Virus record (IMG/VR): IMGVR_UViG_3300028591_000032
Coordinates: 1-45,104 of that record
Length of the DNA: 45,104 nt
Source: a virus
Strand: one strand, 5' to 3'
The first letter of the stretch is position 1. Each line of letters starts with the position of its first letter. The notes under the pieces were generated by a model. That model was not told where the DNA came from, searched no databases, and was given only the letters and a program-made list of their open reading frames with translations. Shown one piece after another: positions 1 to 45,104 of this stretch. The translations under genes and the position numbers were made by a program.

Positions 1-127
1 AACAGGCTGTAGTCCCCGGTATCCCGCCCGATCTGCCTGTACTGGTGCAGGATTCCCATGGCAGTGTCCAGGTCGCTACCTCCCCACGCTTCGGAGGAGG
101 CAAGTCTTTCCGCCTCCCCGTCGAAGT
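1..127. repeat. Terminal overlap, copy 1 (identical to 44978-45104)
   Basis: Direct comparison of the first 127 nt and the last 127 nt of the window. Confidence 0.95.
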
Positions 128-3788: not shown

Positions 3789-3798
3789 GCTTCCCTCC

Positions 3799-8259: not shown

Positions 8260-8525
8260 GATATCCCCATCCTTACCGCGATGTAGGCCAGCAGCGCCGT
8301 CACCACCCAGGTGAGCACGCTCTGGCTGACGCTGTCCCATCGTTTCCCCGGCCTGAGCCGCATTTCCTGGAGGGTTTTAGTCATTTCCTCCAGTTTGCCG
8401 TCGATCTGGTCCAGGCGCTGCTTCAGCAGGGCCAGGGTGATGTCCCCGTTGTGCAGCCGCTCCTCGGCGGCGTCCATGCGCCGCCGAAGGTCCTCGAATT
8501 CCACGCGGGTCACCGGTTCATTCAT
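8256..8525 (-). CDS. xhlA: XhlA-like lysis accessory protein (coiled coil plus a C-terminal transmembrane helix)
   Basis: 89 aa. An N-terminal coiled coil (EDLRRRMDAAEERL...IDGKLEEMTKTLQEM) is followed by the hydrophobic helix VLTWVVTALLAYIAV. It sits next to the holin and endolysin. Confidence 0.55.
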   Translation of the reverse strand: MNEPVTRVEFEDLRRRMDAAEERLHNGDITLALLKQRLDQIDGKLEEMTKTLQEMRLRPGKRWDSVSQSVLTWVVTALLAYIAVRMGIS

Positions 8526-8727
8526 CGGCAGCTCCCTCGCCCTCTGCCTCCGGCAGACCCGTGACGATGCTGGTGAGGATACTCAGGATCCCCGCCAGCA
8601 AGGAGGCGGACGCCACTGCGAGCCAGTTGACCTCCTCCATTACCGCCGTGGTGCCGATGACGGCGATGGCCGTCTGTGCCACCGTCCGCAGTGCCCGGAT
8701 CCCCGCCGCCTTCAGAAATTTCTTCAT
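8518..8727 (-). CDS. Holin (two transmembrane segments)
   Basis: ATG 8727 follows AAGGAGAGGGAG. The sequence is MKKFLKAAGIRALRTVAQTAIAVIGT...WLAVASASLLAGILSILTSIVTGLPE. It lies immediately downstream of the endolysin. Confidence 0.7.
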   Translation of the reverse strand: MKKFLKAAGIRALRTVAQTAIAVIGTTAVMEEVNWLAVASASLLAGILSILTSIVTGLPEAEGEGAADE

Positions 8728-9365
8728 GCTCCCTCTCCTTTCAGTCTGTGCAGCACCGCCGCCAGCTCCGCCCGCGTCACGGGCCTGTCCGGCTGCCATG
8801 TGCCGTCCTCGTAGCCTGTCATGAGGCCCTTGTCCATGGCCCAGCGGATGTGTTCTTCAGCCCAGTGGCCTTCATAGTCCGTCTTAGGCTCGTCTTTGTA
8901 CATTGGTCTCACCACCCCCACGATATTGCGATATAGTCGCGTTTTGTACGCCACGCAGCCCCCGTTGTCCTGGCTGCCCACGTTGTAGCTGTACGATGTG
9001 TTCCCCTCGATGGTGCTCACCCATCCGTCTCCCGTGCCGAGAATGAGACCGCAGTGTTCAGGATCCTTTCCGCCGTAGAAGTTCAGCAGTACGATATCCC
9101 CCGGCCGCGCCTCGCTCACCGGCACCGTCTGTCCCTGGGCCCGGTACCAGCTGTACAGCACGCCGCAGGAGGCGGTCTTTCTTCCGCCGCAGAACAGCTC
9201 AGAAAGCCCCGCCGCCCGGAAGCACCACCAGAGGAAGATGACGCACCAGGGTACTCCGTCCCATCCGTATGCCGCGCCGTACTTCGTCCTGTTGGAGCCG
9301 GGCGGGGATTCGGTGCCGCCCACCTCCGCCCGTGCCGTTTCGATCAGTCTGTCGATGCACTTCAT
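8724..9365 (-). CDS. Endolysin: N-terminal CHAP amidase/peptidase plus a C-terminal SLH cell-wall-binding domain
   Basis: CHAP Cys context GVPWCVIFLWWCF and His context EHCGLIL. SLH-like HWAEEHIRWAMDKGLMTGYEDGTWQPDRPVTRAELAAVLHRL. Confidence 0.8.
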   Translation of the reverse strand: MKCIDRLIETARAEVGGTESPPGSNRTKYGAAYGWDGVPWCVIFLWWCFRAAGLSELFCGGRKTASCGVLYSWYRAQGQTVPVSEARPGDIVLLNFYGGKDPEHCGLILGTGDGWVSTIEGNTSYSYNVGSQDNGGCVAYKTRLYRNIVGVVRPMYKDEPKTDYEGHWAEEHIRWAMDKGLMTGYEDGTWQPDRPVTRAELAAVLHRLKGEGA

Positions 9366-9930: not shown

Positions 9931-11160
9931 TTATGTCGGTATGGCCTGGATGTACGCGCTTCGGGCGCTCCAGCCGCTCGCCGCCTGGTACGCCGCCACA
10001 GAGGCGGAGGGAACATATATGGCACAGTCAGCGGGAACGTTGCTGAGTGCACCCGACCCAAGTGTCGGCGGCATTGAATTCAGGCAGTAGAGTTCCGTCA
10101 GGCCGCTGCAGCCGTAGAACGCATTGCTTCCGATGCTCGTCACGCTCGACGGGATCGTCACGCCCGTCAGACTCGTGCAGCCGAAGAATGCGCTGCCCCC
10201 GATGCTCGTCACGCCCTCCGGGATCGTCACGCTCGTCAGACTCGTGCAGCCGTAGAACGCATAGGCCCCAATGCTCGTCACGCTCGACGGGATATTAAGT
10301 GCAGTCACCGTCGTTCCGTTGAGGTATAATGTGTGCACCAAAGTAGTTGGGTTGCTATAGGCATCGAAAAAGCTGATCCCGCACCAGGCGGCTATATCTG
10401 TGATATGCACGCCCGTAAGCCCCGTGCAGCCGTAGAACGCATTGCTTCCGATGCTCGTCACGCCCTCCGGGATCGTCACGCTCGTCAGACTCGTGCAGCC
10501 GGAGAACGCGCCGCCCCCGATGCTCGTCACGCTCTCCGGGATCGTCACGCTCGTCAGACTCGTGCAGCTGGCGAACGCGCTGCCCCCGATGCTCGTCACG
10601 CCCTCCAGGATCGTCACGCCCGTCAGACTCGTGCAGCCGAAGAATGCGCTGCCCCCGATGCTCGTCACGCCCTCCGGGATCGTCACGCTCGTCAGACTCG
10701 TGCAGCCGTAGAACGAGTATTGTACATCCAGCCGCATCCCATCACCGAAGCGCACGCCTGTCAGGGTAGGATACGTCCCGCTCTTGCCGCCCTGACCGCA
10801 CAGGCCGTAGTTGGTGGTGCTGCTTCCGGAGGTGATCGCCGCGCCGGGGCTCCAGGTCTCCCCGTCCGCGCAGGCGATGCGTACAATGTAATCCCCCGCC
10901 TCGGCGTAGGTGTGACTCAGGCTCGCCGCCAGATCGCTGGGGCTTTCTGTGGCGCTGCCGTCCCCCCAGTCTACCGTCACGGCGTTGGCCGCGCTCTGCG
11001 TCAGATACAGGGGCTGGGTGAGGTTGGAGGTCAGGTTGAAGTCCAGTTGACTGTCCGTACTCCCGGGCCACACCTCCACCCCGTTGTACCGCACACGCTG
11101 GTTGGGCGATCCGTTGTAGTTGACGTGCTGGACGGGTGTCCCGTTGTATTTCAGTGCCAT
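9931..11160 (-). CDS. BspA-type leucine-rich-repeat (LRR_5) receptor-binding/fibre protein, 409 aa
   Basis: Tandem 23-aa units of the form CTSLTSVTIPEGVTSIGGSAFxG. The C-terminus IYVPSASVAAYQAASGWSARSAYIQAIPT is shared with the second LRR gene. Confidence 0.75.
   Translation of the reverse strand: MALKYNGTPVQHVNYNGSPNQRVRYNGVEVWPGSTDSQLDFNLTSNLTQPLYLTQSAANAVTVDWGDGSATESPSDLAASLSHTYAEAGDYIVRIACADGETWSPGAAITSGSSTTNYGLCGQGGKSGTYPTLTGVRFGDGMRLDVQYSFYGCTSLTSVTIPEGVTSIGGSAFFGCTSLTGVTILEGVTSIGGSAFASCTSLTSVTIPESVTSIGGGAFSGCTSLTSVTIPEGVTSIGSNAFYGCTGLTGVHITDIAAWCGISFFDAYSNPTTLVHTLYLNGTTVTALNIPSSVTSIGAYAFYGCTSLTSVTIPEGVTSIGGSAFFGCTSLTGVTIPSSVTSIGSNAFYGCSGLTELYCLNSMPPTLGSGALSNVPADCAIYVPSASVAAYQAASGWSARSAYIQAIPT
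10085..10712. repeat. Two blocks of about 69-bp tandem repeats encoding the LRR units (about 10085-10300 and about 10400-10712)
   Basis: The unit gatgctcgtcacgccctccgggatcgtcacgctcgtcagactcgtgcagcc... recurs with a 69-bp period. Confidence 0.85.
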
Positions 11161-11169
11161 GGCGTCACC

Positions 11170-11679
11170 TCAGTTATTTATATCCAGGGTGCCTGTGCCG
11201 CTGTCGAATTGCATGGAGTATGTGGAGAGGGGGATGACATACAGTGCGGCATATTCCTCGTAGGTCATTTCTCCGGTATCCGGGTCTTGCGTTTCGTCCA
11301 TGATGTGTGTGACCTGTACCAAACTCGCACTGTTATCAAAAAGAACGTCCGTATATACTACACGGCCAAACTGTGCCGCCCTGACGGTGGGGGCCAGAGT
11401 GCCCGGAATGCCATTCAATGTCAGCGTCCCCAGCACCTCCCGCCCCGCCGCCTGTGCCGCCGCGATCTGCGCCAGAGTGTGGCTGTAGGAAAGTGGGTAG
11501 ATGTTGCCCGTCGGCGCTCCACTGATGGTATACTTCACCACCAGGGGGGACTTGTCCGCCGCCACCCATTTGCCGTCCTCCACCGTCAGGACTTTGCCGT
11601 TGTCCGCGCTGGAAACGGGGGGCAGGCCGCCGCCGCGGCTCTTCGCGCCCATGGCGTAGCTCACGGGATCAAAGCTCAT
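11170..11679 (-). CDS. 169-aa hypothetical protein in the fibre module
   Basis: The ORF is translationally coupled to its neighbours and has ordinary composition. I recognise no motif. Confidence 0.6.
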   Translation of the reverse strand: MSFDPVSYAMGAKSRGGGLPPVSSADNGKVLTVEDGKWVAADKSPLVVKYTISGAPTGNIYPLSYSHTLAQIAAAQAAGREVLGTLTLNGIPGTLAPTVRAAQFGRVVYTDVLFDNSASLVQVTHIMDETQDPDTGEMTYEEYAALYVIPLSTYSMQFDSGTGTLDINN

Positions 11680-11874: not shown

Positions 11875-12558
11875 TTATGTCGGTATGGCCTGGATGTACG
11901 CGCTCCGGGCGCTCCAGCCCGCAGCGGCCTTGTATGCGCTGACGGACGCCGCCGGAACGTAGATGGCGCAGTTGGATGGAACGCCGGTAAAGGTCGTGGA
12001 ATCAGCCGCCGGGGGATTCGCCGCCGGGATCGTGATGCTTGTGAGTCTGCTGCACCCGTTGAACGTGCCGGAAGCCCCGCCGATCAGATATTGCGACAAG
12101 GTCACGGCGGCGAGGTACTCACACCCGGAGAACAGGTTCTTGCCGAAAACGTATGTGGATGGCGCAAAGGTCACGGCGGTCAAGCTCACGCAGTCCTCAA
12201 AAACGCCCCCGCCTTCAAAGGTATAAGAATCGAGGCCAAAGCTTTGGACGGTTTCCGGCACCGTCATTTGACGCAGGGAGCGGCAGCCGTAAAACGCTCG
12301 GTATCCCACGGCGGTGACGCTTTGCGGTATCGCTGCGCTTCTCAGATTTCTGCAGTAGGCGAAAGCATAGGAGCCGATTTGGGCCGCCCCGTCAAAGTCC
12401 TCCGCCGTAAGGGTGACGATGCTCCGGTCCACCAGATTCCGCATGAGCCCGGCGGGGGAGAAGGTCACGCTCCCCGTGGGGGTCCTGAGGCGCACCGCCT
12501 CCACGTCCGGGATGGTGTGGTCCAGATCATCGGGACCCTTCAGAACGATGCTCGGCAT
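11875..12558 (-). CDS. Second BspA-type LRR receptor-binding/fibre protein, 227 aa
   Basis: LRR_5-like units (YAFAYCRNLRSAAIPQSVTAVGYRAFYGCRSL). The C-terminus YVPAASVSAYKAAAGWSARSAYIQAIPT matches gene 9931..11160. Confidence 0.7.
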   Translation of the reverse strand: MPSIVLKGPDDLDHTIPDVEAVRLRTPTGSVTFSPAGLMRNLVDRSIVTLTAEDFDGAAQIGSYAFAYCRNLRSAAIPQSVTAVGYRAFYGCRSLRQMTVPETVQSFGLDSYTFEGGGVFEDCVSLTAVTFAPSTYVFGKNLFSGCEYLAAVTLSQYLIGGASGTFNGCSRLTSITIPAANPPAADSTTFTGVPSNCAIYVPAASVSAYKAAAGWSARSAYIQAIPT

Positions 12559-12678: not shown

Positions 12679-13263
12679 TCACCCCAGGGTGATCTCAAAG
12701 GCGTCCCGCAGCAGCACGGGCACCCGGTCCTTCCCCACGGTGACGCTGCTCTCCAGAGGCCCGAAGAAGATGGGGCTGCCGCCCGTGGGGGTGTCGAAGA
12801 TCCCGAAGTGGGTGATGGGGGCGTCGTACCCCGCGTGGGCCTCGTCGCTCTTCCCCGTGTAGGGAAACATGATGACCTCCGTGTGGTTCCGGATGCGCCC
12901 CACCTTCTTGGTGACCGTGCTGCTTGGGGTCGTGTCCGAAACGCTGTCATAGATGCCGATCTTCCGGTCCACATAATCCACGGCGCTCAGGAGCTTGTTT
13001 CCCTCCAGCCCCAGGGCCGTCAGCTCCACCCGGTGGTAGCTCCCCTCCTCCCCGGTACCGCCGCAGACGGGCTCCGCGTAGCTGCTCACGTTCCCGTAAG
13101 CGTCCACCGCCGGCGCGGCGGTGAAGAAGGCGAGATATACCCGCGTGGGAAAAAAGTTCGCGGTGGTGGGGTTGTTCTTCTCCCCCGCCGTGCCGCTCTT
13201 GTAGGTCCATTCCCTGTTCAGCAGCCCCGTCAGAATGTTGGCCGCCCAGGTCCCGCTCAGCAT
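12679..13263 (-). CDS. 194-aa conserved virion structural protein (a family often annotated as minor tail or fibre-associated)
   Basis: The pattern VYLAFFTAAP...SYHRVEL...ITHFGIFDTPTGGSPIFFGPL...FEITLG matches a widespread phage structural family as I remember it. Confidence 0.6.
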   Translation of the reverse strand: MLSGTWAANILTGLLNREWTYKSGTAGEKNNPTTANFFPTRVYLAFFTAAPAVDAYGNVSSYAEPVCGGTGEEGSYHRVELTALGLEGNKLLSAVDYVDRKIGIYDSVSDTTPSSTVTKKVGRIRNHTEVIMFPYTGKSDEAHAGYDAPITHFGIFDTPTGGSPIFFGPLESSVTVGKDRVPVLLRDAFEITLG

Positions 13264-35369: not shown

Positions 35370-35397
35370 ATTATATAGGGTATTTCCTAAATGTCAA
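35370..35397 (-). promoter_or_regulatory. Leftward (lytic) promoter candidate (TTGACA, 16 nt, TATAAT) with TTAGGAAAT in the spacer
   Basis: The minus strand reads TTGACAtTTAGGAAATaccctaTATAAT. It faces the rightward promoter. Confidence 0.55.
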
Positions 35398-35437: not shown

Positions 35438-35839
35438 ATGACACAGATAGAACGAGTCCGAAGGATATGCAAAGAAAAGGGCATTCCAGTTTACAAACTT
35501 GAACAAGATTTAGGCTTTAGTAACGGGTATTTGAATCCCAAAAAAGCACAAAGCATCTCTTATATCCGGCTTCTGGCGATTGCGGACTATCTGGACGTTT
35601 CGATTTACGAATTGACGGGAGAAGAACCTAAAATTCCGGCCATTACTCCATCAATGGAGTTTGTTCCTACGGACAAAGCCAAGACCATTCCTGAAGATGA
35701 CATGGAAGATATTCTGGAGACGCTTCGGGAGCGGCCGGACATGCGGATCCTGTTCAAAACATCTAAAAAAGCCACTCCGGAAGCTGTAATGAAGGTGGCC
35801 GAACTGCTTAAGGCTTTTGAGCATGACGATACCGATTGA
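35438..35839 (+). CDS. CI-like XRE-family repressor
   Basis: TAGGAGG precedes the ATG. The HTH reads IPVYKLEQDLGFSNGYLN. It lies upstream of the ImmA-like gene and the integrase. Confidence 0.7.
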   Translation: MTQIERVRRICKEKGIPVYKLEQDLGFSNGYLNPKKAQSISYIRLLAIADYLDVSIYELTGEEPKIPAITPSMEFVPTDKAKTIPEDDMEDILETLRERPDMRILFKTSKKATPEAVMKVAELLKAFEHDDTD

Positions 35840-36257
35840 GGGTGCGGACTACTTTGTCCGGGCCGTGGACCTGAAGGACGATTCAATAAACGCTGCTGTC
35901 CGGCCGAATGATGACGGCACATATTCGGTATATTTGAACACCCGCGCATCTAGCGAAGCCCAGCATGCGGCCATGGACCACGAACTGGAGCACATATCCG
36001 AAGATGACTTCAACAATGAGAAACCCATATCTGAGATCGAGAACCGGCAGCTAAAGAAACAAAAAAAGCCCCGCGAAAACCGCAGCGCTTTAGATCCGCA
36101 GGAGCGGGCCAGGGTACAATCGCTGATCCGCCAGGCGTGGACCGACGATCACATCCGCATCATTGACGCGGAAGATGCGACGCTGGAAGATCTGGAAGAA
36201 ATGCTGGCCTGGCTAAAGAGTCAGCATGATAGCGAATATTCATTCGATTGGAGCTGA
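35823..36257 (+). CDS. ImmA/IrrE-like HExxH metallopeptidase (antirepressor protease candidate)
   Basis: The motif is AAMDHELEHISEDDF. The gene is coupled to the repressor gene. The track start is TTG 35817. Confidence 0.6.
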   Translation: MTIPIEGADYFVRAVDLKDDSINAAVRPNDDGTYSVYLNTRASSEAQHAAMDHELEHISEDDFNNEKPISEIENRQLKKQKKPRENRSALDPQERARVQSLIRQAWTDDHIRIIDAEDATLEDLEEMLAWLKSQHDSEYSFDWS

Positions 36258-36262
36258 TTGCA

Positions 36263-37324
36263 ATGAAGGTACCTGAGCCGCGCAAGCTCCCCTCCGGTAA
36301 CTGGTTCTGCCGGCTCCGCCTGGGTGGTGAGGATATCCCCATCACCTGCGCCACGGCGAAGGAAGCCACTCGGAAGGCCACGCTGATCAAGGCGGAATAC
36401 CTGGCCGGGAAGCGGACGCCACAGGCCAAAAGCTCCATGACGCTGCGGGAGGCCTGCGCCAAGTACATCTCCGCCCAGGAGAAGGCAAAGCACTCCCCGG
36501 AGACGATCCGGGGGTATGACGTGATCATGCGCTGCCGCTTCCAGTCCGTGATGGATCTTCCCGTCAGCTCCATCACCGACTGGCAAGCCGCATATAACAA
36601 AGACGCCGCCAGGCTGTCCCCGAAGTCAATGGAGAACGCCTGGCGGTTCATCAGATCAGTATGTAAGCACGAATGCGGGATCGCCCTGCCGGAGATCAGC
36701 ACGGTCAAGCGCAGTCGGCCGGACCACGCCTTCCTGGAGCCGGAAGATATCAAGCGATTTGTGGCAGAAGCTGCAAAGGATAAACACGCGATCCCGCTCC
36801 TGCTCTGCCTCAGCTCCTGCCGCAGCTCAGAGGTCCAGGGCCTGGAATGGTCCCAGGTGGATCTGGAGCATAACCGCATTCACATTACGCAGACGACGGT
36901 CCAGAATAAGGATCGGGAGTATGTGACGAAAACCGGAGCGAAAACGGCAGAGTCCGCCAGGTATATCCCTTTGTTCATCCCGGAGCTGAGGACCGCGCTC
37001 CAGGCCGTCCGGGACAAGTCCGGCAAGGTGGTGAAGGTCCGCCCGAACAGCGTTTACCGGCGGGCCAATCAGATCTGTGAGCGCCTGGGCCTGCCGCCCG
37101 TCGGCCAGCACGGCCTCCGTCACAGCTTCGCCAGCCTGTGCTTTTCCCTGGACGTCCCCGCGAAGATCACCCAACAGATCGGCGGCTGGAAGGATGACCA
37201 GATCGTCATGGAGATATACACCCACCTGAGCCAGAAGCACCTGGAGGATCAGCTGGGCAAGCTAGAGCAATTCTTCCAAAACGGCAATGAAAACGACAAT
37301 GCAGAAAAAAATGCCGCGCAGTAG
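36263..37324 (+). CDS. int: Tyrosine recombinase/integrase
   Basis: The C-terminal catalytic block reads HGLRHSFASL...GGWKDDQIVMEIYTHL. The track start is TTG 36248; ATG 36263 has a GGAG SD. Confidence 0.85.
   Translation: MKVPEPRKLPSGNWFCRLRLGGEDIPITCATAKEATRKATLIKAEYLAGKRTPQAKSSMTLREACAKYISAQEKAKHSPETIRGYDVIMRCRFQSVMDLPVSSITDWQAAYNKDAARLSPKSMENAWRFIRSVCKHECGIALPEISTVKRSRPDHAFLEPEDIKRFVAEAAKDKHAIPLLLCLSSCRSSEVQGLEWSQVDLEHNRIHITQTTVQNKDREYVTKTGAKTAESARYIPLFIPELRTALQAVRDKSGKVVKVRPNSVYRRANQICERLGLPPVGQHGLRHSFASLCFSLDVPAKITQQIGGWKDDQIVMEIYTHLSQKHLEDQLGKLEQFFQNGNENDNAEKNAAQ
37283..37301 (+). repeat. Arm-type repeat GGCAATGAAAACGACAATG (left of the att core, inside the int 3-prime end)
   Basis: 18 of 19 bases are identical to 37514-37532. 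Confidence 0.7.
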
Positions 37325-37339
37325 GGCCATTCTTGGCAT

Positions 37340-37374
37340 ATCAAGCGGGGGTTCGACTCCCCCCGCCTCCACCA
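37340..37374 (+). other. 3-prime end of a tmRNA/tRNA (T-arm, acceptor 3-prime strand and CCA); candidate attP core
   Basis: GGGGG-TTCGACT-CCCCC, then CGCCTCC-A-CCA. The CUCCACCA ending and U70 are typical of tmRNA and tRNA-Ala. There is no D-arm or anticodon arm upstream, so this is only a fragment. Confidence 0.65.
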
Positions 37375-37570: not shown

Positions 37571-37598
37571 AAGAGGGGCCGGTTTCCCGGTCCCTCTT
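37571..37598 (-). terminator. Hairpin terminator after the last minus-strand accessory gene
   Basis: aagaggggccgg-tttc-ccggtccctctt lies 5 nt past the TAA at 37603-37605. Confidence 0.5.
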
Positions 37599-37602
37599 CT
37601 CG

Positions 37603-38028
37603 TTACATGCGATCCAGCATGCTCTTGAGCTTGCGGCGCTCGGACTCCGGCATATCCCGGAAATCCATCATGATGTCCTCGATTCCGTCGTGGGCGCTGT
37701 ACCCACCGTCTCGGGAGACGTAGCGGCCCATGCTGTCACGCCCGCGCCGGTTGGAATATTCGTCGGCGTAGGACCTACGCATGGAGTTCCCGCCCTCATA
37801 GCTCCGGCGATATTCTCCACCATCATAGCTCCTTCGGGACTCCCCGCCCTCAGACTCCATCATGGCCAGCGTGGTCTTGACGCACTTGAGAGAATGGGTC
37901 AGCTTGTCGATGATGTCGATGTTCGCCACGCTCATGTCCCCACCGCGCTTCAAACGATCAGTGCTGTCCCGCAGATGCTGGGTGATGATCTCGCACAGCT
38001 CTTCCAGGACCTTGGTCTTGTCTTCCAT
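37603..38028 (-). CDS. 141-aa hypothetical protein with RRSY/GG repeats
   Basis: ATG 38028 follows AAGGAG. The sequence contains GGESRRSYDGGEYRRSYEGGNSMRRSYADEYSNRRGRDSMGRYVSRDGGYS, with helical ends. Confidence 0.6.
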   Translation of the reverse strand: MEDKTKVLEELCEIITQHLRDSTDRLKRGGDMSVANIDIIDKLTHSLKCVKTTLAMMESEGGESRRSYDGGEYRRSYEGGNSMRRSYADEYSNRRGRDSMGRYVSRDGGYSAHDGIEDIMMDFRDMPESERRKLKSMLDRM

Positions 38029-38041
38029 TTTTTCTCCTTCC

Positions 38042-38503
38042 TCAGCGCACTCGATCGAAGGCAACGGTCAGGACGCCGTTGCTCAGGGTGATCGGCTGTG
38101 CGCTGGTGTTGCGGATGGCAACGCTCCCGCATCCGCAGATATACGGGATGGACACGATGATGTCAGTGCCCACGTTGCCGTACTCCTCAACGGCTGCCGG
38201 CGTAAAGCGCATCAGGCTCCCCGCGTCGCTTTCTCCCTCCTCCGCGACGGAGAGGGTGATCTCTTCCACGGTCCCGCCGGTAGGCACCGCTATGTTGCCG
38301 TTGAAGGAGACCAGGTAGTCAGCCTCGGGCATGCCGCAGCAGCCGCAGTGGGAGTATCCCATGGTACGCGGTGACGCGAGCCGGAAAAGCCCGCTGTTGG
38401 GCCGGTGGAACACCAGCCCACGATTGCATGGCGCGGAAGCCGCGCCGAAAATGACGCTGGCGCCCGGCTGAACGGTCTGCTCAGTTGCAATGAATTCAGG
38501 CAT
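38042..38503 (-). CDS. 153-aa Cys-rich beta-sandwich protein (BclA C-terminal/C1q-like pattern)
   Basis: EQTVQPGASVIFGAAS...GLFRL...ADYLVSFNGNIAVP...IRNTSAQPITLSNGVLTV resembles the C1q/TNF-like exosporium and fibre tip domains as I remember them. CGCCG and CGCG clusters are present. Confidence 0.35.
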   Translation of the reverse strand: MPEFIATEQTVQPGASVIFGAASAPCNRGLVFHRPNSGLFRLASPRTMGYSHCGCCGMPEADYLVSFNGNIAVPTGGTVEEITLSVAEEGESDAGSLMRFTPAAVEEYGNVGTDIIVSIPYICGCGSVAIRNTSAQPITLSNGVLTVAFDRVR

Positions 38504-38518
38504 TCAGCTCACCGCCCT

Positions 38519-39400
38519 TCAGGCAGCGAAGCCGAAGCCGTTGTTGCCGCAGCCGCAGCCGTTGTTCACGGGCTGGGTGCAGTTCCAGATCCGCTGGTTC
38601 CCAAATACCGGTACGGTATCCACGGGGCAGTCCTTCAGCCGCGTGTAAACGCGGTCCACGATGCTGTCCGCGTTGGCGATCCGGGAAGCCTCTCCACGGG
38701 CATACAGCAGCTCGGTCCGCAGATTGTCGATCTCGCGGTCCTTCGCCGCGCTCTGGCCCTTCACGTTGTCCAGCTCCAGCTGGCACAGCTTGTCAATGAT
38801 GGACTGCCCCACCCGGTTCTGGTTGTCGATGATATCTCTGGTGTTCTGGTAGCCCGCCGTGCGGTTGGCGCAGGCCTCCGTGCTGATGGTGTAGCGGTTC
38901 TCAGCCAGACCGCTCTGGAGCGCAAAGCCCTGCTGCATGCTGGCCATCTGCCGGTTGTTTGCCGCGATCTCTGCGCCGTAAAAGCCGTCCCGCACCGCGC
39001 CGGTGATGCTGTTGCCGGTTTCGCAGATCTGACGCCCGATACCGGCCATGCCAAGCTGAACGTCGCCGAAGCCACGGTTCACGTCCGTGCGCAGGCCGTC
39101 GAGCTGCGTGTTGAGCTGCTGGTCCCGGAAGCCGTCGCTGATGTGCTGGCTATTGTTGAGCCAGGGGTAGAGGTAGTCCAGGCCGAAGCCGCCCATGCCA
39201 GCGCCCATCATCATGGGCCACATCATGCCGCCGCCGAAGCCGCCCAGGCCCCAGCCGCCGCCTCCGCCGATGAGAAGCAGTAGGATGACCCAGCCCAGGA
39301 AATCCCCGCCGAAGAGGCCGCCCTGGTTACCATAGCCGCCATACGCAGGAGCGACCGGCATATAGAAGCCGTTGTTCCGGCCCTCGTCAAAAATTGCCAT
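38519..39400 (-). CDS. 293-aa Gly-rich membrane/coiled-coil protein with a Cys-rich C-terminus
   Basis: ATG 39400. The sequence has GGYGNQGGLFGGDFLGWVILLLLIGGGGGWGLGGFGGGMMWPMMMGAGMGGFG, then a Gln/Asn-rich helical region, and ends in NNGCGCGNNGFGFAA. Confidence 0.6.
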   Translation of the reverse strand: MAIFDEGRNNGFYMPVAPAYGGYGNQGGLFGGDFLGWVILLLLIGGGGGWGLGGFGGGMMWPMMMGAGMGGFGLDYLYPWLNNSQHISDGFRDQQLNTQLDGLRTDVNRGFGDVQLGMAGIGRQICETGNSITGAVRDGFYGAEIAANNRQMASMQQGFALQSGLAENRYTISTEACANRTAGYQNTRDIIDNQNRVGQSIIDKLCQLELDNVKGQSAAKDREIDNLRTELLYARGEASRIANADSIVDRVYTRLKDCPVDTVPVFGNQRIWNCTQPVNNGCGCGNNGFGFAA

Positions 39401-39459
39401 TGTCTTAGTCCTTTCGTTGTATTTATTCCTCCGCCGTGTGCACCCGGACGGCTGAATAC

Positions 39460-39726
39460 TCATTTTCTGAGGCCCAGTCTGTTGAAAACCTGTGGAACCT
39501 TCTGTGCCCCCACCTGGCCCGTACGAAGCAGATACTGGGTGATCTGCCGCACGTCCGTCATGCCTTCCGGGATGTTGTATCCCCTCGCTTGCAGATAGGC
39601 CCCCGGCCCTCTGCTGATTTCGTCCACGTCACGCTGCATCTGTTGGAGCATCTGCGGGTCCATCTGCTGACCCTGCTGCGGGTTCTGCGGAGGCGTATGT
39701 CCTCCCAATCTCTCAAAAAGGCTCAT
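39460..39726 (-). CDS. 88-aa Gln-rich hypothetical protein
   Basis: ATG 39726 follows GGAGGAG. The sequence begins MSLFERLGGHTPPQNPQQGQQMDPQMLQQMQRD. Confidence 0.5.
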   Translation of the reverse strand: MSLFERLGGHTPPQNPQQGQQMDPQMLQQMQRDVDEISRGPGAYLQARGYNIPEGMTDVRQITQYLLRTGQVGAQKVPQVFNRLGLRK

Positions 39727-40132
39727 GCTGGTCTCCTCCCCTGTCATTCAATGCTGCCGACAGAAGTGCCTGCAGCTCATCCTTTCGCACATATTCTGCC
39801 GGATTCAGCTTCGGTGCGGGCGGCGCCGGAGGCCGCTTATCGTAATAGTCCTTGTCGAACTGTCCGCCCTGGTGCATGGTCTTCACGATAAAGGTCGATT
39901 CGTCCCGGCTCACAAACATCTGTGATGCTCCCGCCGCCATAGGGTACCGGTCAACTTCGTCCTCGCTGCCGTACTGAATGATTTCCGCGTGGATGGTGGG
40001 CGGAGTCATCGCCTGCGTGTTTTGGCTGTTCTGCCCGTGTCCCGTCAGCCCCATCATTCGCATGAATTGCGGGTCTTGCTGCGGCTGCTGCCCCGGGTAA
40101 TCCGGATACCATCTTCCCATCTGATCGATCAC
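39713..40132 (-). CDS. 139-aa Gln/Pro-rich hypothetical protein
   Basis: An ORF in the accessory operon. The sequence includes PGQQPQQDPQF...IHAEIIQYGSEDEVDRYPM. Confidence 0.55.
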   Translation of the reverse strand: MIDQMGRWYPDYPGQQPQQDPQFMRMMGLTGHGQNSQNTQAMTPPTIHAEIIQYGSEDEVDRYPMAAGASQMFVSRDESTFIVKTMHQGGQFDKDYYDKRPPAPPAPKLNPAEYVRKDELQALLSAALNDRGGDQHEPF

Positions 40133-40144
40133 AGCTGAATCCTC

Positions 40145-40519
40145 CTATCGTTCAAAGTAGTATGTCGGTATGGTCTGCGTGCTGTTCCAGCTGTCCCAGA
40201 CGTCCCCTTCGATGATGCTGACTGCATGCTCCGGTGGCCCTAGCACGTATATCCCCCGGGGGTGGTCCTCCGCAAAATCCGCCACGGTATAGCACTCCGG
40301 GCAGCGGTCGATCATCTTGACACGCCTGAAGCCGTGATACCGCAGCATCTCCCACCACACCCGATCTGAGGACGGCATGTCCGCCATATCCCGGGAAAGG
40401 TCACACAGATCCCGGTGTACTCGGTTCCAGTCTTGCCCCGTCACTGCACATATGGCGCGGACGGTGCAGTCTCCCACCATCAATCCCTGTGGGTTGGGGT
40501 TCCATCGCCTCCACGCCAT
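40145..40519 (-). CDS. 124-aa protein with a papain-like Cys/His pattern (putative cysteine peptidase/amidase)
   Basis: AGGAGG lies 7 nt before the ATG. The motifs are GDCTVRAICAV and PEHAVSIIEGDVWDSWN. The assignment is by motif only. Confidence 0.55.
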   Translation of the reverse strand: MAWRRWNPNPQGLMVGDCTVRAICAVTGQDWNRVHRDLCDLSRDMADMPSSDRVWWEMLRYHGFRRVKMIDRCPECYTVADFAEDHPRGIYVLGPPEHAVSIIEGDVWDSWNSTQTIPTYYFER

Positions 40520-40607
40520 ATCGCGTCCTCCTCATGCGTTCTATCTCACCGTGCGCCCGGTCTACATCCCAGGCGCAGTAATCCAGGAGCTCCAAATAGT
40601 CGTACAT
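40401..40607 (-). CDS. Short leader ORF (MYDYLELLDYCAWDVDRAHGEIERMRRTR...); only the first 30 or so codons look coding
   Basis: GGAGGGCAAACAA precedes the ATG. After the overlap with 40145..40519 begins, G/C at third positions falls. Confidence 0.25.
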   Translation of the reverse strand: MYDYLELLDYCAWDVDRAHGEIERMRRTRYGVEAMEPQPTGIDGGRLHRPRHMCSDGARLEPSTPGSV

Positions 40608-40632
40608 TTGTTTGCCCTCCTGGGATAAGCAT

Positions 40633-40674
40633 ATAAAAAAGAGGGCCTATCCGGAAGTCACCGGATAGGCCCTC
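40633..40674 (-). terminator. Strong rho-independent terminator (14-bp perfect stem plus a T6 tract)
   Basis: The minus strand reads GAGGGCCTATCCGG-tgactt-CCGGATAGGCCCTC-TTTTTTAT, directly after the sigma-like gene. Confidence 0.8.
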
Positions 40675-40696: not shown

Positions 40697-40900
40697 TCAG
40701 TAGTAGCGGAAAATGGTTCGTTTCCCCTTGCGCATGATCTTTTTGATCCCCTCATAGGTGAGGTGATACTTATTTGCCAGCTCACCGTAGCTCAGCCCGT
40801 CCACCAGATTGTCCAATAGGATATCTCTATCTCTGGCGTTGTGGATGTACTCCGCCACCAGGTTCTTCACACGGACGTTGGAGTAATCCTCTGGGGTCAT
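40697..40900 (-). CDS. 67-aa sigma-70 region-4-like HTH protein
   Basis: LSYGELANKYHLTYEGIKKIMRKG is an HTH of the region-4/LuxR type. Confidence 0.5.
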   Translation of the reverse strand: MTPEDYSNVRVKNLVAEYIHNARDRDILLDNLVDGLSYGELANKYHLTYEGIKKIMRKGKRTIFRYY

Positions 40901-40942: not shown

Positions 40943-41224
40943 TTAGTCCTCTTTCGGGTAGTAACCTTCAACTTCTGACCCATCGAACAATACACCATTC
41001 CTTTCCCCGATGATGTTGACGCCCTGTCCGTCCTGCGTGTATTCGCTGGTCGTACAGCTGAAGTCATACTGATTCAGATACAACAGGAACGCCGCAGCCA
41101 TGGCGATGATGATGATCAGCTCCACGATGTGGCCGATCCAGTGTCTACGGTCCCTGCGGTCCGCCCGCTCCTCCGCGGCCTCGAATGCTGCGAAGGGAAC
41201 GTAACTGTGATTGTTCTGTTCCAT
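40943..41224 (-). CDS. 93-aa single-pass membrane protein
   Basis: GAGGAGACATT precedes ATG 41224. The sequence is RRDRRHWIGHIVELIIIIAMAAAFLLYLNQYDF. The track ORF 40943..41773 extends upstream in a junk frame. Confidence 0.6.
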   Translation of the reverse strand: MEQNNHSYVPFAAFEAAEERADRRDRRHWIGHIVELIIIIAMAAAFLLYLNQYDFSCTTSEYTQDGQGVNIIGERNGVLFDGSEVEGYYPKED

Positions 41225-41235
41225 AATGTCTCCTC

Positions 41236-44200
41236 TCATTTTCTCGTGGGGAGCATCATCTGTGTCAGTGGGTTCTGACGCTTCGGCTGCACCGCGGGAA
41301 GCTGGAGCGTCTGGCTCCCGGTATTCCGTGCGGATCCGCTCCCGACGCGCCAGGGCGCTTCGTCGATGGTGCTCTCGGCATAACCGTTGTCCCGATACAG
41401 ATAGTCCTTCTGCGCGTTGGTGAGCGGCAGGCTGTTGATGGTGTCCAACACCTTGGCCTTCTTGCTGCCGCTGATGCTCTTGCCGCTTGCGTCCTTGTCC
41501 GCTTCCAAACTCCCGGTCATTCCCTTGTACTGGAGGTATACGGCTGTCTCGATCCCCGCCTGGGTCGCGGCCTGGTAGGCCTTGTCGTAGGCGGTGTTGC
41601 TGTATTCCGTGCCACGGCTTTCCGCGAACGCTTTGGCCGCGAGGAAGTTCGCGTAGTTCCGGATCCAGTTGGCGGTCTCGGCTTTGTCCGCGTCGCTGAG
41701 TCCGGCGTACCAGCCGCTGGTCAGCATCTGCCGCATCAGGCCGGTGATCTGCCCGCCCCGGAATGCCTGCCACTGCGTCCGCTCGTCCGGGGTCAGGGTA
41801 TAGGTCTCGCCGCTCAGCTTCGCCTCATACGGCGGATTCCTCTGGGGCAGTACCGTTCCGCTCCCCGTGGCCTCATACAGCCTGAGCAGCTCATCCCGCA
41901 CCTCGTCCGTGTCGTATACGCTGATGCTCCCGGGATTCAGCAGAGCGTTCATGGCGTTCAGGGTGGGGCTCTCGTACCGTCTCGGCTCGCCCAGGGGCGT
42001 GAGCTTCGGGGCCAGGAGGCTCCGGACTCCGGGGACGGCGTTTGCCGTCCGCGCCGCCGCCTGGTCCAGGAGGTTGCGGGAGCGATACTGGTCCCTGTAT
42101 ACCATGTCTGACGCCTGCGCAAGCTGCCGCACCGGCGCGGGGACAAAGCCGCTCAGCGATGAAGAGGCGATCTCGAAGGGGACCTGCATATACAGGGGCA
42201 GATCGCTCTCCACGTCGTGGTATTGGATCGTGTTGTATATGTTGCTCAGGGTCTGCATGGCGGAGGTGTTCTCCAACGCCAGCCAAATGCCCTGAAGGGA
42301 GTCCTCTACGGTCTTCCCGGCCACTCTCCCATCGGTAAAGAATTTGCCAAGGTCCAGCCCCTTCAGTTCCTTGTCATTTGTGACCAGTGTTGCGATAGTC
42401 ATGAGGCTGTCCAGAGGCTCCAGGAAATTGATGTCGGCCAGCACGTCCCCCTTCTGCGGCTCCGGACTCTTCCCGGAGAGGAGCCGCCCCATGGCCGTCA
42501 CGTTGAGCTGTGTCCCGGTGATGCCCTGGCTCTGGAGCAGAGCGGCGGCGTTGGCGTCCTTTTCTGCTTCTTTCCGCCGCAGCAGGCCAAGCTTCGCCAG
42601 CAGCGCGAACAGCATGATCAGTCCGCTCCCCGTGGTGGCCCGCCCGAATGCCAGAGCGGCATCCCGCTGGGCCTTGAGCGTGCTTTCGCCGCGCCCTGCC
42701 CGGTTCACCGTCTGTGCCAGATGATACAGCCCCTTGACATAACCGACAGGGCTGAACTCGATGGTCCTGTGGATCAGCGCCCCGGGCACCTGGGTATACT
42801 TCACAACCAGGTCGCCCAGGCCGAAATCGTGTACAGGCCTGCCCCTGACAGTCTTGCCGGATGTATTCCCGATTCCGGCCGTGTTCAGGACATCCCGCAG
42901 TCCGCCCAGCATCGTGCCGACGAGCGTGTCATCCTGGAAGGAGCGGTACAGTGCCTCCTGGGCGGCGAACTCCGCCGCCTCCTCCTCCGTCATCTGCCCT
43001 CGCTCCACGAATCTTGCCAGGCTCTCCAAGGTCTCGGCGTAGACGCTGCCCTTGTGGAATTCGTCCGTGGTGTTCAGCTCGTAGCCCAGGATCTGTTCCG
43101 CCCGGGAGAGGATGCGCCCGACGGCGCCGCTGTTGGCCATGCTCCAGGTGCGCCGCGCCCCGGTGCCGTACTTACTCAGATTCCGCTCCCCCGGAGCCGC
43201 GTCCAAAGCGATCTCAAGAAGGTTGCGCCCCGCGCCCTGAATGGCGCCGCGCCGCTTCGCCGCGCTGGCCCAGCTCTTCTGCAGCCCTACGCCGCGTTGA
43301 CCTGTAAACCGGCTCATGATGATGTCCGGCAAAAGACCGAGGTTGTTCGCCGCGGTCTCCACCAGATCGAACACCTGGTTGCTGGTAAGGTTGCGCATGG
43401 CCGTGCGGGCGTTCAGCAGGTGGGAGATCACCTGATAGGTGCTGAGCTTCTCCCCGGCGGTCCTGGGGACGTAGTCCGCAGCGATGAGGCCGAGCTGTAC
43501 CGTGGCCAGAGCCCGGAGGTATTCCGTGTCCGTGGTGCCGCCCAGGACCTTTTCCGCCAGGCGGTCCAGCTTGGTCTTCCGCACGGCAGCCTGTTCCCGG
43601 ATGAGCTGCCGGAGCCCCTCCAGGTCATCCTCCGCGATGGCGTCCAGTGTGTCCGCAAACCTGGCCATAGTCTCCGTGATGCGCCGCTGCTCCGCCCTGC
43701 TGAGCTTGCCAAGCCCCAGGGCGTCCACCACGGCGTCCTCCACGTTAGTGCTGGTGAGACCGCCCAGGTGAATGAGATCCATGAGTCTGTCTCGCTGCGC
43801 GGGCTTGATCCTCTCGCCGGTCTCCCGGAACATCTTTTCCAGCTCACGGTCCGCCCGCTCCTGGATGCGCTCCATGTAATGCCCGGCGATGTGGTTTGCC
43901 GCGATGGCGGCGTCCGCTGCCGGAATGTGCAGCTCGTTGATGAGATACCCGGCGATCCGGTTTGCCGCCTCGGCCTTGGTGAGGCGGGATTCCCGCAGCA
44001 GCTCTGTGAGCCTGATGTCCAGTTCTCTCGCCGCCTCGTCCTCCAGCCTCTCCGTGCGCCCCTCGATGTTGCTCTCCCGAATCAGGTTCCCGATGTGCCG
44101 CTGCACGGCGTCCAGCAGCACCTGGTCTTCTGTACCGACGCGCCGGATGAATTCGTCGGCAATGCGCCGTGCGGCATTCTGCCCGACCCCTGCCGCCGCC

Positions 44201-45104
44201 AGGTCCAGGATATCCTTTTTTGTGATCCCAAGGGCCTCCGCGGACTCCAGGATCGCACGGTACATGGTCCTGTCCAGGTCCTCCCCGTTGTAGCTGATGG
44301 TGGCGTTCAGGAAACTCTCCAGCGCCTCCAGCTTCTCCGGGTCATCGGCGTACTGCGCCCGCAGCACATCCTTGGCCTCCTGCCAGGCGCGGGCGTAGGC
44401 CTCCCGGTTGTTGAGGTAGTCCGTGATGCGCTCGATGGCCGTCCGGGGAGCCTCCCGATCCGCCTGCTGCAGCGCATGCTCGGAAGCGTAATTCACCAGA
44501 TCATCCAGGATGGTCTGCATAGTGGTCTGTGCCCTGGTGGCCTTCGGTTCAATCCGTGCGGAGATCCTCTGAGCCAGACGGTCGCCTGCCTCCGTGATCC
44601 AGTTCTCCACGGGGATCCCGTGGTCCCGCTGCTCACGGAAGATCTGGTAGATCTCCCGGATGACATGCTCGGCGTCCGTGGCCCGCTGCGCGTCTCTCGA
44701 CCCGGCAGGAGCGGACCCCGGGACATCCTCGCCCCTCGCCAGGCCTACGGCCTCCCTGGCGGCGTCTTCGGAAAATTCGTCAGCCGCACCGATGATTCCC
44801 TCCGTGATCCTCCGCACACGCTCCTGCTCAGCGGGCGTCAGCCTGCCTGCGGTCTCACGCATCGTCTCGGATGCTTTCCGCGCTGCCTCGGTCGCGGTGC
44901 GGCTGTACTTTGCGAAGGCTTGCACGAGTTGCCCGCCCTTTGTGCCCTTGCGCTGGATGATGTGGGACCATTCGTGGAACAGGCTGTAGTCCCCGGTATC
45001 CCGCCCGATCTGCCTGTACTGGTGCAGGATTCCCATGGCAGTGTCCAGGTCGCTACCTCCCCACGCTTCGGAGGAGGCAAGTCTTTCCGCCTCCCCGTCG
45101 AAGT
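41236..45104 (-). CDS. Giant polyvalent-like protein, C-terminal part (continues from 3788..1; bases 44978-45104 duplicate 1-127)
   Basis: Track ORF 41236..45036 has no stop upstream of its first Met and is in frame with the ORF that leaves the window at base 1. A second HExxH (HEWSH) lies at 44962-44976. The body is long and helical, with the hydrophobic segment GSGLIMLFALLAKLGLL. Confidence 0.8.
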   Translation of the reverse strand, partial: FDGEAERLASSEAWGGSDLDTAMGILHQYRQIGRDTGDYSLFHEWSHIIQRKGTKGGQLVQAFAKYSRTATEAARKASETMRETAGRLTPAEQERVRRITEGIIGAADEFSEDAAREAVGLARGEDVPGSAPAGSRDAQRATDAEHVIREIYQIFREQRDHGIPVENWITEAGDRLAQRISARIEPKATRAQTTMQTILDDLVNYASEHALQQADREAPRTAIERITDYLNNREAYARAWQEAKDVLRAQYADDPEKLEALESFLNATISYNGEDLDRTMYRAILESAEALGITKKDILDLAAAGVGQNAARRIADEFIRRVGTEDQVLLDAVQRHIGNLIRESNIEGRTERLEDEAARELDIRLTELLRESRLTKAEAANRIAGYLINELHIPAADAAIAANHIAGHYMERIQERADRELEKMFRETGERIKPAQRDRLMDLIHLGGLTSTNVEDAVVDALGLGKLSRAEQRRITETMARFADTLDAIAEDDLEGLRQLIREQAAVRKTKLDRLAEKVLGGTTDTEYLRALATVQLGLIAADYVPRTAGEKLSTYQVISHLLNARTAMRNLTSNQVFDLVETAANNLGLLPDIIMSRFTGQRGVGLQKSWASAAKRRGAIQGAGRNLLEIALDAAPGERNLSKYGTGARRTWSMANSGAVGRILSRAEQILGYELNTTDEFHKGSVYAETLESLARFVERGQMTEEEAAEFAAQEALYRSFQDDTLVGTMLGGLRDVLNTAGIGNTSGKTVRGRPVHDFGLGDLVVKYTQVPGALIHRTIEFSPVGYVKGLYHLAQTVNRAGRGESTLKAQRDAALAFGRATTGSGLIMLFALLAKLGLLRRKEAEKDANAAALLQSQGITGTQLNVTAMGRLLSGKSPEPQKGDVLADINFLEPLDSLMTIATLVTNDKELKGLDLGKFFTDGRVAGKTVEDSLQGIWLALENTSAMQTLSNIYNTIQYHDVESDLPLYMQVPFEIASSSLSGFVPAPVRQLAQASDMVYRDQYRSRNLLDQAAARTANAVPGVRSLLAPKLTPLGEPRRYESPTLNAMNALLNPGSISVYDTDEVRDELLRLYEATGSGTVLPQRNPPYEAKLSGETYTLTPDERTQWQAFRGGQITGLMRQMLTSGWYAGLSDADKAETANWIRNYANFLAAKAFAESRGTEYSNTAYDKAYQAATQAGIETAVYLQYKGMTGSLEADKDASGKSISGSKKAKVLDTINSLPLTNAQKDYLYRDNGYAESTIDEAPWRVGSGSARNTGSQTLQLPAVQPKRQNPLTQMMLPTRK
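44978..45104. repeat. Terminal overlap, copy 2 (identical to 1-127)
   Basis: Direct comparison of the two window ends. Confidence 0.95.

Follow-up and report, generated by a model that had tools for sequence, protein, structure and literature searches.

A conserved, separately transcribed phage operon beside attP encodes a predicted C1q/TNF-like protein and a putative membrane-anchored stalk

The viral record IMGVR_UViG_3300028591_000032, analysed here over its whole length of 45,104 nucleotides (the window), carries a tightly packed group of genes, gB to gG (40519–37603, minus strand), between its late operon and its attP site, and the question raised by this locus is what such a set of proteins does for a phage. 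A preliminary description had read the group as a candidate lysogenic-conversion system composed of secreted, envelope or spore-surface-type proteins. The present analysis indicates that gB–gG form a phage operon in their own right, transcribed apart from its neighbours, and are not random cargo. Its products are tentatively read as a membrane-anchored stalk-and-head complex, matured by a protease, which would reside at the cytoplasmic membrane and either exclude incoming DNA or control lysis and egress. No described system appears to have this composition, and no protein of the module belongs to a curated family.

On the minus strand, the late operon, a 14-bp terminator, the gB–gG operon, a closing hairpin, attP and the integrase follow one another. 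The intrinsic terminator of the late operon (40633–40674, minus strand) consists of a 14-bp stem (40674–40641) with 10 G-C pairs, a 6-nt loop and a T6 tract. Its folding energy is −32.7 kcal/mol (z = −6.4), and none of 200 shuffled sequences was as stable. The operon-closing hairpin (37571–37598, minus strand) has a GAAA loop and a weak U-tract (−21.6 kcal/mol, z = −3.3). Both elements and the open reading frames (ORFs) between them lie on the minus strand where the preliminary description had placed them, and its view of the cluster as an insulated transcription unit adjoining attP holds, with terminators on both sides. Of its seven ORFs, the six tightly packed genes gB–gG stand and are also called by public gene callers on an identical contig, whereas the first, gA (40401–40607, minus strand), is doubtful. 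This possible leader ORF of 68 amino acids (aa) has a strong Shine–Dalgarno sequence (AGGAGGG) and one weak match; as a conserved gene it was rejected, no convincing protein-level homologue having been found. In relatives, its slot holds small ORFs of several unrelated types. Because gA overlaps gB by 119 nt, is not called by public gene finders and lacks convincing homologues, the conserved unit is taken to be six genes plus a variable leader ORF. Intergenic spacing ranges from −14 to +59 nt, and Shine–Dalgarno-like sites are present at all seven ORFs gA–gG. The G+C content is 0.58–0.63 at 37–41 kb and mostly 0.58–0.68 elsewhere in the window, i.e., there is no compositional shift.

Database searches agree with the earlier impression that none of the ORFs has a standard phage function. 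None of gA–gG has a match in Pfam, NCBIfam or PADLOC, the PADLOC defence library gave no match among nine proteins at E ≤ 0.1, and among PHROGs, gB, gC, gE and gF fall in families of unknown function. Likewise, no peptidoglycan hydrolase domain was found in gA–gG with Pfam, no signal peptide or lipobox was recognized in any cluster protein when the N-termini were read by eye, no module protein contains collagen-like GXY repeats, and the exosporium-leader model TIGR03720 had no match among all module proteins in the NCBIfam scan. The compositional features described earlier, namely a Gly-rich stretch in gE, Gln in gC and gD, a Cys-rich gF and RRSY repeats in gG, were all found.

The strongest argument that these genes form a unit is their conservation. 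The comparison covered 28 viral-contig loci and 80 genome-contig loci, the latter almost all from gut or rumen metagenome-assembled genomes of Clostridia and Bacilli. Iterated profile searches showed the order gB-gC-gD-gE-gF-gG in 17 of the 28 viral and 48 of the 80 genome loci (>65 independent loci), a clustering far beyond chance, and gE and gF adjacent in 21/28 and 72/80 loci, respectively. Seven loci show the variant order (tm98)-gE-gF-gG-gB without gC and gD, which leaves gE, gF, gG and the protease as the core. The block, usually with the genes tm98 and sig67 upstream, occurs in more than 100 phage loci with unrelated structural genes, and the giant protein encoded upstream of it in the window is common to no other locus. 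Its commonest upstream neighbour is an endolysin (ELLD + PG_binding_1, 18 loci) or a holin, and a reverse-strand integrase lies downstream in 11/28 viral and 17/80 genome loci. Two chromosomal prophages (loci L100 and L105) end with the module, and host genes follow it. At the remaining loci that were inspected, phage genes surrounded the module, and no copy stripped of phage genes was seen. Butyrivibrio virus Ceridwen, a siphovirus for which only lytic growth has been seen in vitro, also carries the module. A further contig (JGI 3300024345, positions 94–4542 of locus L114) has an identical gE and the same sizes for the remaining operon genes, followed by two reverse-strand DUF1573/HYDIN-type immunoglobulin-like genes and no integrase there; since these downstream genes differ, the operon occurs in a second context.

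The terminator ahead of the operon is conserved in position as well. Of 84 relatives whose gB start could be mapped, 56 have a terminator at this place, although the stem sequences vary between loci, and in most relatives the strong hairpin and its T-run lie between sig67 and gB. The hairpin loops in relatives often hold CATTG or CATCG, which provides the TTG of a −35-like hexamer, and the 3' stem together with the T-run forms the 17-nt spacer to a −10 hexamer, often with a TG extension. A TTG/TCG-17 nt-TAnnnT promoter overlapping the hairpin is present at 21 of 73 module terminators, in comparison to 29 of 686 other terminators from the same loci (odds ratio 9, p = 2e-10). This promoter geometry, overlapping the preceding terminator in relatives, indicates that the operon is an independent transcription unit. 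Two other candidates at this site were rejected: an Rfam element, for which only a sub-threshold ctRNA match produced by the hairpin itself was obtained, and direct repeats beside the hairpin as activator sites, as exact 7-mers were no commoner than in dinucleotide shuffles.

gF (38042–38503, minus strand; 153 aa, 6 Cys) is read as a stand-alone head domain. Its AlphaFold2 model, with a predicted local distance difference test score (pLDDT) of 91.4, is confidently a C1q/TNF jelly roll, and the C1q/BclA-like character proposed in the preliminary description is thus confirmed at the fold level. A Foldseek search indicated that the best match is the C-terminal domain of F-BclA (PDB 9h38, E = 7e-8), followed by ExsFA (7r1m), BxpB (8d02), EDA-A1 and BclA (1wck). 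TM-scores against BclA, ExsFA, EDA and C1QL are 0.6–0.77, with only 8–15% sequence identity. The knob of the phi812 central spike and phage collagen/C1q proteins are also among the fold matches, and BFVD contains many stand-alone phage proteins with this C1q-like fold. No Pfam family (including BclA-C, PF18573) or NCBIfam model matches gF at E ≤ 0.1. gF has 1,138 relatives. The loop that leads from the conserved FRLASP motif to the strand after it is hypervariable and Cys-rich.

In some loci, the slot of gF between gE and gG is taken by an unrelated Cys-rich protein of 125–134 aa (MACKNVCRIC...RCCAPVTACG), which looks like a swap to a non-homologous head. It is found at 5024–5419 in L006, 9015–9416 in L016, 10733–11128 in L096 and 4959–5336 in L117, the Clostridium perfringens phage CPD1. 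The possibility that the 132-aa form is a distant gF homologue was rejected, given an hhalign probability of 0.3% and no Pfam or PDB match. Following this alternative head led to cultured C. perfringens phages: CPD1 has gC-like (E = 4e-15), gD-like and gE-like (E = 6e-19) genes together with the alternative head, and five further C. perfringens phages have a gE gene.

gE (38519–39400, minus strand; 293 aa) is the proposed stalk. It starts with a conserved N-terminal peptide (NNGFYMPVAPAYGG), and residues 15–75, which are 39% Gly, contain a Trp-flanked hydrophobic core long enough for membrane spanning. The remaining body of ~200 residues is Gln/Asn-rich, is read as helical, and ends in a conserved C-terminus (CPV..PV.G....C...GCGCG). 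gE matches phrog_16490, and its relatives are numerous (>7,168 clusters at 90% identity; 1,044 representatives at 50% identity). No gE-gF fusion was found in ~110 loci or in the top 150 representatives, and the 50%-identity representatives include no long fusions. A PDB profile search returned only matches below significance (E = 0.2–0.9), to HA2 (E = 0.3–0.9), a spike-fibritin chimera (E = 0.2) and coronavirus S2, and hence no significant similarity to the heptad-repeat cores (HA2, S2 or gp41 type) of class I viral fusion glycoproteins.

gE extends further than the complete module. Many crAss-like phages carry homologues (e.g., gp022 of cr116_1, E = 2e-25), as do C3_41T2LP, a cultured phage of Bacteroides uniformis (E = 1e-28), and predicted viruses of Methanomassiliicoccales; their gene neighbourhoods, like those in the C. 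perfringens phages, are similar. In cr116_1, the gene is located inside the capsid block. In these Bacteroidota phages, gE is followed by a small Cys-containing protein, which is probably β-rich, and by a protein with a conserved block ahead of a likely coiled coil; C3_41T2LP also has a gG-like gene 3' of gE (E = 7e-5). In place of the Cys peptidase gB of Firmicutes phages, small HExxH proteins flank gE, at 4141–4488 and 6721–7116 in cr116_1 (L118) and at 7404–7898 in C3_41T2LP (L119), the motif having been read by eye. A PolyVal metallopeptidase is annotated near gE in the latter phage. In the Methanomassiliicoccales virus vir215 (L120, 2652–5259), genes for a tail protein and for a reverse transcriptase, which may belong to a diversity-generating retroelement, lie just 5' of the gE homologue, and an integrase gene lies 3' of it. 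The module is among the more widespread unannotated gene blocks of gut phages. No discussion of the family was found in the literature searched, and neither Yutin et al. 2021 nor a second crAss genome paper mentions in its main text the crAss gene that GenBank labels "spike".

gB (40145–40519, minus strand; 124 aa) is a putative papain-fold cysteine peptidase, which fits the papain-like pattern noted in the preliminary description. Asp17-Cys18, His98 and Asp109 are invariant in 36 sequences, and a CPxC motif is present at 73–76. In the AlphaFold2 model (pLDDT 84), Cys18 opens a helix (17–27), and His98 and Asp109 are located just before strand 100–103 and just after strand 106–108. The best Foldseek match, Josephin-2, is weak (E = 0.03, probability 0.84, TM-score 0.46), as are those to a tegument-like deubiquitinase and an MCF protease. 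gB matches phrog_3754; it has no Pfam family, and the PDB profile search gave chance-level matches only. Homologues without the module lie among early or accessory genes in Bacillus phage Izhevsk (L032, 3974–4369), Geobacillus phage GBK2 (L031, 3986–4375) and Lak megaphages. In Tsamsa-like Bacillus phages, such a stand-alone gene adjoins a Ser/Thr kinase gene and an Ocr-like anti-restriction gene. The role of the gB protease family is thus broader than this module and may be a separate one.

The other three proteins combine low-complexity sequence, rich in Tyr/Pro/Gln (gC), Gln (gD) or Arg/Ser/Tyr/Gly (gG), with short conserved domains. gC (39713–40132, minus strand; 139 aa, 11% Gln and 10% Pro) shows in alignment a Tyr/Pro/Gln-rich N-terminus, a conserved block of ~50 residues (YPV.AG.S...IY.KS), probably β, and a C-terminal stretch that looks helical. 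phrog_21718 matches 22 of 26 gC members, and no PDB match was obtained by profile search. gD (39460–39726, minus strand; 88 aa, 17% Gln) starts with MSLFERLGG, ends in the motif NIP.GM.D..QI.Q.LL.SGQV and is kept in 90 loci; it has no family match in Pfam, PHROGs or NCBIfam. gG (37603–38028, minus strand; 141 aa), present in 94 loci, consists of a conserved N-terminal block, an RRSY/GG low-complexity middle, an RDSMGRY motif and a conserved C-terminal stretch. The two ends look helical, and the family has no Pfam, PHROG or PDB match. At least 12 loci have an additional conserved gene of ~115–125 aa (MITEQDLQEAIAECEG...CIKLAAFYTI...) 3' of gG, for example at 11646–11990 in L059 and 5423–5794 in L088. 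The window lacks this gene, a possibly related type is present in four more loci, and no Pfam family matches it.

Two genes upstream of the terminator accompany the module. tm98 (40943–41239, minus strand) encodes a 98-aa single-pass membrane protein with one transmembrane (TM) segment and the motif PY.VHEG.M.R.ER..KRLWI. In 44 loci, the module has a homologue of tm98 on its 5' side, which in the variant order adjoins gE directly; the family has no Pfam or PHROG match. sig67 (40697–40900, minus strand; 67 aa) resembles sigma-70 region 4 or Mor, with scores below the thresholds in both cases (Sigma70_r4, 18.5 bits against a cut-off of 24.1, E = 0.0015; Mor, 16.6 against 24.9, E = 0.008), and it matches PHROG late transcriptional activators with E-values of 0.002–0.02. 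In 19/28 viral and 38/80 genome loci, it directly precedes gB, often with tm98 ahead of it, and it is a candidate regulator.

How might these proteins act together? In the reading that we tentatively favour, gE would insert into the membrane via its Gly-rich segment, and its body of ~200 residues would form an elongated, probably trimeric helical (coiled-coil) stalk. gF would be a trimeric head docking on the conserved Pro/Tyr/Cys peptide of gE. gB, or the small HExxH peptidase in Bacteroidota phages, would trim or mature a partner, the low-complexity proteins gC, gD and gG may be adaptors or scaffolds, and sig67 may help fire the terminator-overlapping promoter. The complex would serve either to keep out incoming DNA from competing phages or to set the moment of lysis and egress. 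It is placed at the cytoplasmic membrane because gE has a TM-type segment, tm98 travels along with the module, and this membrane is common to all hosts. The hosts of gE-carrying viruses have very different envelopes, as they include single-membrane bacteria, double-membrane bacteria and archaea. This diversity argues for a universal target, most likely the cytoplasmic membrane, and makes it unlikely that the role is confined to spores or to the wall of Gram-positive cells. A spore-specific role was set aside also because module hosts such as Butyrivibrio are taken to be non-sporulating, and because relatives occur in Bacteroidota and archaeal viruses. In addition, a pure lysogenic-conversion role is unlikely, since only lytic growth has been seen for Ceridwen and an integrase was neither found nor annotated close to gE in Ceridwen, cr116_1 or C3_41T2LP. 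A broader proposal, rather unlikely as it stands, is that gE-gF and a small protease are the core of an unrecognised system in viruses of Firmicutes, Bacteroidota and methanogenic archaea, in which the infected cell would display the membrane-anchored stalk with its TNF-like head, much as cells infected by enveloped eukaryotic viruses carry viral glycoproteins on their membranes, and the complex would control the entry of competing DNA or the timing of release. It would then be a new class of phage-host membrane machinery in gut phages of several host phyla.

Several points weigh against the membrane complex. Membrane insertion, trimer formation, the gE-gF contact and the protease substrates are all steps that we infer, as is everything beyond gene anatomy, conservation and two fold assignments. 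The charges beside the TM segment of gE give no clear topology, and if the stalk faced outward, gF would be left without a visible export route. The only promoter candidate for the operon in the window is TTCCGG-17 nt-TATGCT, with the −10-like TATGCT at 40633–40628 directly past the terminator T-run; it is a poor sigma-70 match, and generic best-promoter scoring over the 300 nt upstream of gB gave nothing better than shuffles. Because this match is poor, the window operon may need an activator, for which sig67 is the obvious candidate. Furthermore, a coiled-coil stalk with a TNF-like head would be a classic virion-fibre design, and a head that is hypervariable and sometimes swapped for an unrelated protein is typical of receptor-binding parts. 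In L082, the module has tail-fibre-like genes on one side and an M23 endolysin gene on the other, and in L111 it is flanked by tail-like genes. GenBank entries label crAss gE homologues as "spike protein/glycoprotein" or "outer capsid protein/viral fiber".

These last observations are the case for the main rival, an accessory virion fibre, which is possible if doubtful. gE would then be a trimeric coiled-coil shaft whose N-terminal peptide docks on the particle, gF a TNF-like knob, gG, gC and gD assembly factors, and gB a maturation protease. The phi812 spike knob and phage collagen/C1q proteins among the gF fold matches, the location of gE within the cr116_1 capsid block, and the lack of visible signal peptides, as expected for cytoplasmic assembly, also suit a fibre. 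However, the strongly hydrophobic TM-type segment of gE and the accompanying membrane protein tm98 do not, and in most loci a strong terminator stands between the structural operon and the module. A fibre would, moreover, need a docking site universal to podovirus-like, siphovirus and crAss-like backbones with unrelated structural genes. The window also already encodes fibre and receptor-binding candidates, namely two BspA-type leucine-rich-repeat (LRR) proteins, one of them also with a PKD-like stretch, and a podophage Gp80-like fibre (9931–11160, 11875–12558 and 12679–13263, minus strand; LRR_5 and Gp80 matches), which are likely the receptor-binding apparatus of this phage.

An improbable alternative is the one closest to the preliminary description: a lysogenic-conversion (moron) cassette, expressed from the prophage and forming an exosporium-like coat on the cell or spore surface. 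It draws on the flanking terminators, the terminator-overlapping promoter in relatives and the position past the late genes and before attP, where the integrated prophage has one of its ends. The nearest solved structures to gF are exosporium proteins, and the Cys-rich and Arg-Ser/Tyr-rich compositions recall coat proteins. Nevertheless, the proposed secreted spore-surface proteins show no export signals, gF and its partners match neither the BclA-C Pfam family nor the exosporium-leader NCBIfam model, and the module is present in Ceridwen, with its lytic growth and a host taken as non-sporulating. gE relatives in C. perfringens, crAss-like and Bacteroides phages and archaeal viruses also argue against a spore-surface function. 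Nor does the module behave as conversion cargo: it is conserved, not sporadic, its G+C content does not differ from that of the genome, and the inspected copies lay among phage genes or, in L100 and L105, at prophage ends.

Another improbable option is cargo released by lysis. Streptococcus mitis PblA/PblB and Shiga toxin are released in this way, and the module proteins would similarly be made late, freed at lysis and act on sister cells, free virions or the animal host. The module is usually directly 3' of endolysin or holin genes, a late-activator-like gene lies upstream, and gF combines an extracellular-type fold and many Cys with no visible signal peptide. On the other hand, the TM segment would hold gE in membrane debris, nothing points to an extracellular target, and a long distance separates the module of the window from its lysis cassette, which is located within the structural region (8256–9365, minus strand). 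This cassette comprises a CHAP+SLH endolysin (8724–9365), a 2-TM holin (~8518–8730) and an XhlA-like coiled-coil/TM protein (8256–8525), all on the minus strand; the module itself was accordingly rejected as a lysis cassette. As the endolysin carries an SLH domain, a host with a surface layer or a secondary cell-wall polymer is suggested. Finally, anti-phage defence or counter-defence, with gB as a deubiquitinase-like protease and gE as a membrane effector, is very improbable: the location is a typical prophage hotspot, the best fold matches of gB are deubiquitinases and its stand-alone homologues in Tsamsa-like phages adjoin an Ocr-like gene, but PADLOC gave no match, gene order and sequences are strongly conserved, unlike patchy defence islands, and the character of four of the six proteins is that of low-complexity or structural sequences.

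The genome around the operon is that of a circular phage contig, with a 127-bp direct repeat at both ends (1–127 and 44978–45104). When the repeat is removed, a "1266-aa" ORF joins the ORF upstream of it into a single ORF of ~2,508 aa, which runs on the minus strand from ~3785 through position 1 to 41239 and closes the structural block. Its C-terminal half has no PHROG match. Nearly all genes of the window are on the minus strand, including those for helicase, primase, terminase, portal, major capsid and internal virion protein, and the backbone is podovirus-like. The attP core (37324–37374, plus strand) is the 3' end of a transfer-messenger RNA gene, ssrA (Rfam RF00023, E = 4e-7); ARAGORN found no complete gene there, and the core is not a tRNA end. 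It adjoins a tyrosine integrase gene (36248–37324, plus strand; PF00589 on an identical public contig), which is convergent with the operon. Integration would restore ssrA and leave the operon convergent with it. Near the integrase gene, a perfect sigma-70 consensus promoter (12/12; 35370–35397, minus strand) faces the early genes and is divergent from a pair of plus-strand ORFs (35438–36257). The first encodes 133 aa (35438–35839), and the second, of 146 aa with an HExxH motif (MDHELEH), is ImmA/IrrE-like by reading. A 68-aa helix-turn-helix gene (HTH_3/HTH_26 on the identical public contig) lies on the early-gene strand at the other side of this pair. The promoter and the divergent ORFs look like a lysogeny switch.

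If the membrane-complex reading is true, a conserved machine of several proteins, unnamed in databases, is present in thousands of phages of the gut and rumen, including relatives of crAss-like phages, which are among the most abundant human gut viruses. The fold assignment also gives a large family of unknown function a concrete, C1q/TNF-like fold. Whether the module serves exclusion, lysis timing or virion decoration bears on phage competition in the gut and on host-range prediction, as well as on the design of therapy phages against Clostridium perfringens or Bacteroides. Culturable carriers are at hand in Ceridwen with Butyrivibrio fibrisolvens, CPD1 with C. perfringens and C3_41T2LP with Bacteroides uniformis.

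Among known systems, the best structural matches are the exosporium proteins ExsFA, BxpB and BclA; gF shares their C1q-like jelly roll, as a stand-alone domain of ~150 aa. ExsF trimers bind the Pro-rich N-terminal leader peptides of BclA and F-Anchor, and the N-terminus of BclA is cleaved (PMC12357932). This docking has a parallel in the Pro/Tyr peptides conserved in gE, and the cleavage in gB, the protease linked to it. However, in comparison to the exosporium proteins, the low sequence identity of gF, the absence of a BclA-C or leader match and of a collagen repeat, the phage-borne genes with hosts taken as non-sporulating, and a partner, gE, that is a membrane protein read as largely helical all set the module apart. 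Moron cassettes of temperate Firmicutes phages have the same position between lysis genes and attP, flanking terminators and, as in the relatives, a promoter, whereas the module comprises six to nine genes in more than 100 loci, shows no compositional shift and occurs also in phages with no integrase found or annotated nearby. The T4 class III holin T with its antiholins and the i-spanins resemble gE in having a single N-terminal TM segment and a large Cys-containing C-terminal domain, and they too have small soluble partners and are frequently adjacent to lysis genes; yet there is no sequence similarity, and the window has its own holin and endolysin. No lipoprotein-like N-terminus of the o-spanin type was recognized by eye among gE neighbours. 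Most module hosts are expected to be single-membrane, and spanins are unneeded there. Reovirus sigma-1, PRD1 P5, the Sf6 tail-needle knob and the phi812 central-spike knob have the same shaft-plus-knob design, and under the fibre alternative the module can be likened to C1q-tipped tail fibres, but the TM-type segment of gE, the insulation from the structural operon and the occurrence in unrelated virion types differ from such fibres. TNF type II ligands such as EDA-A1 have the same succession of N-terminal tail, one TM segment, stalk and trimeric TNF-fold head, with an associated protease; here stalk and head are separate polypeptides, and the likeness is architectural only, with topology and trimer predicted.

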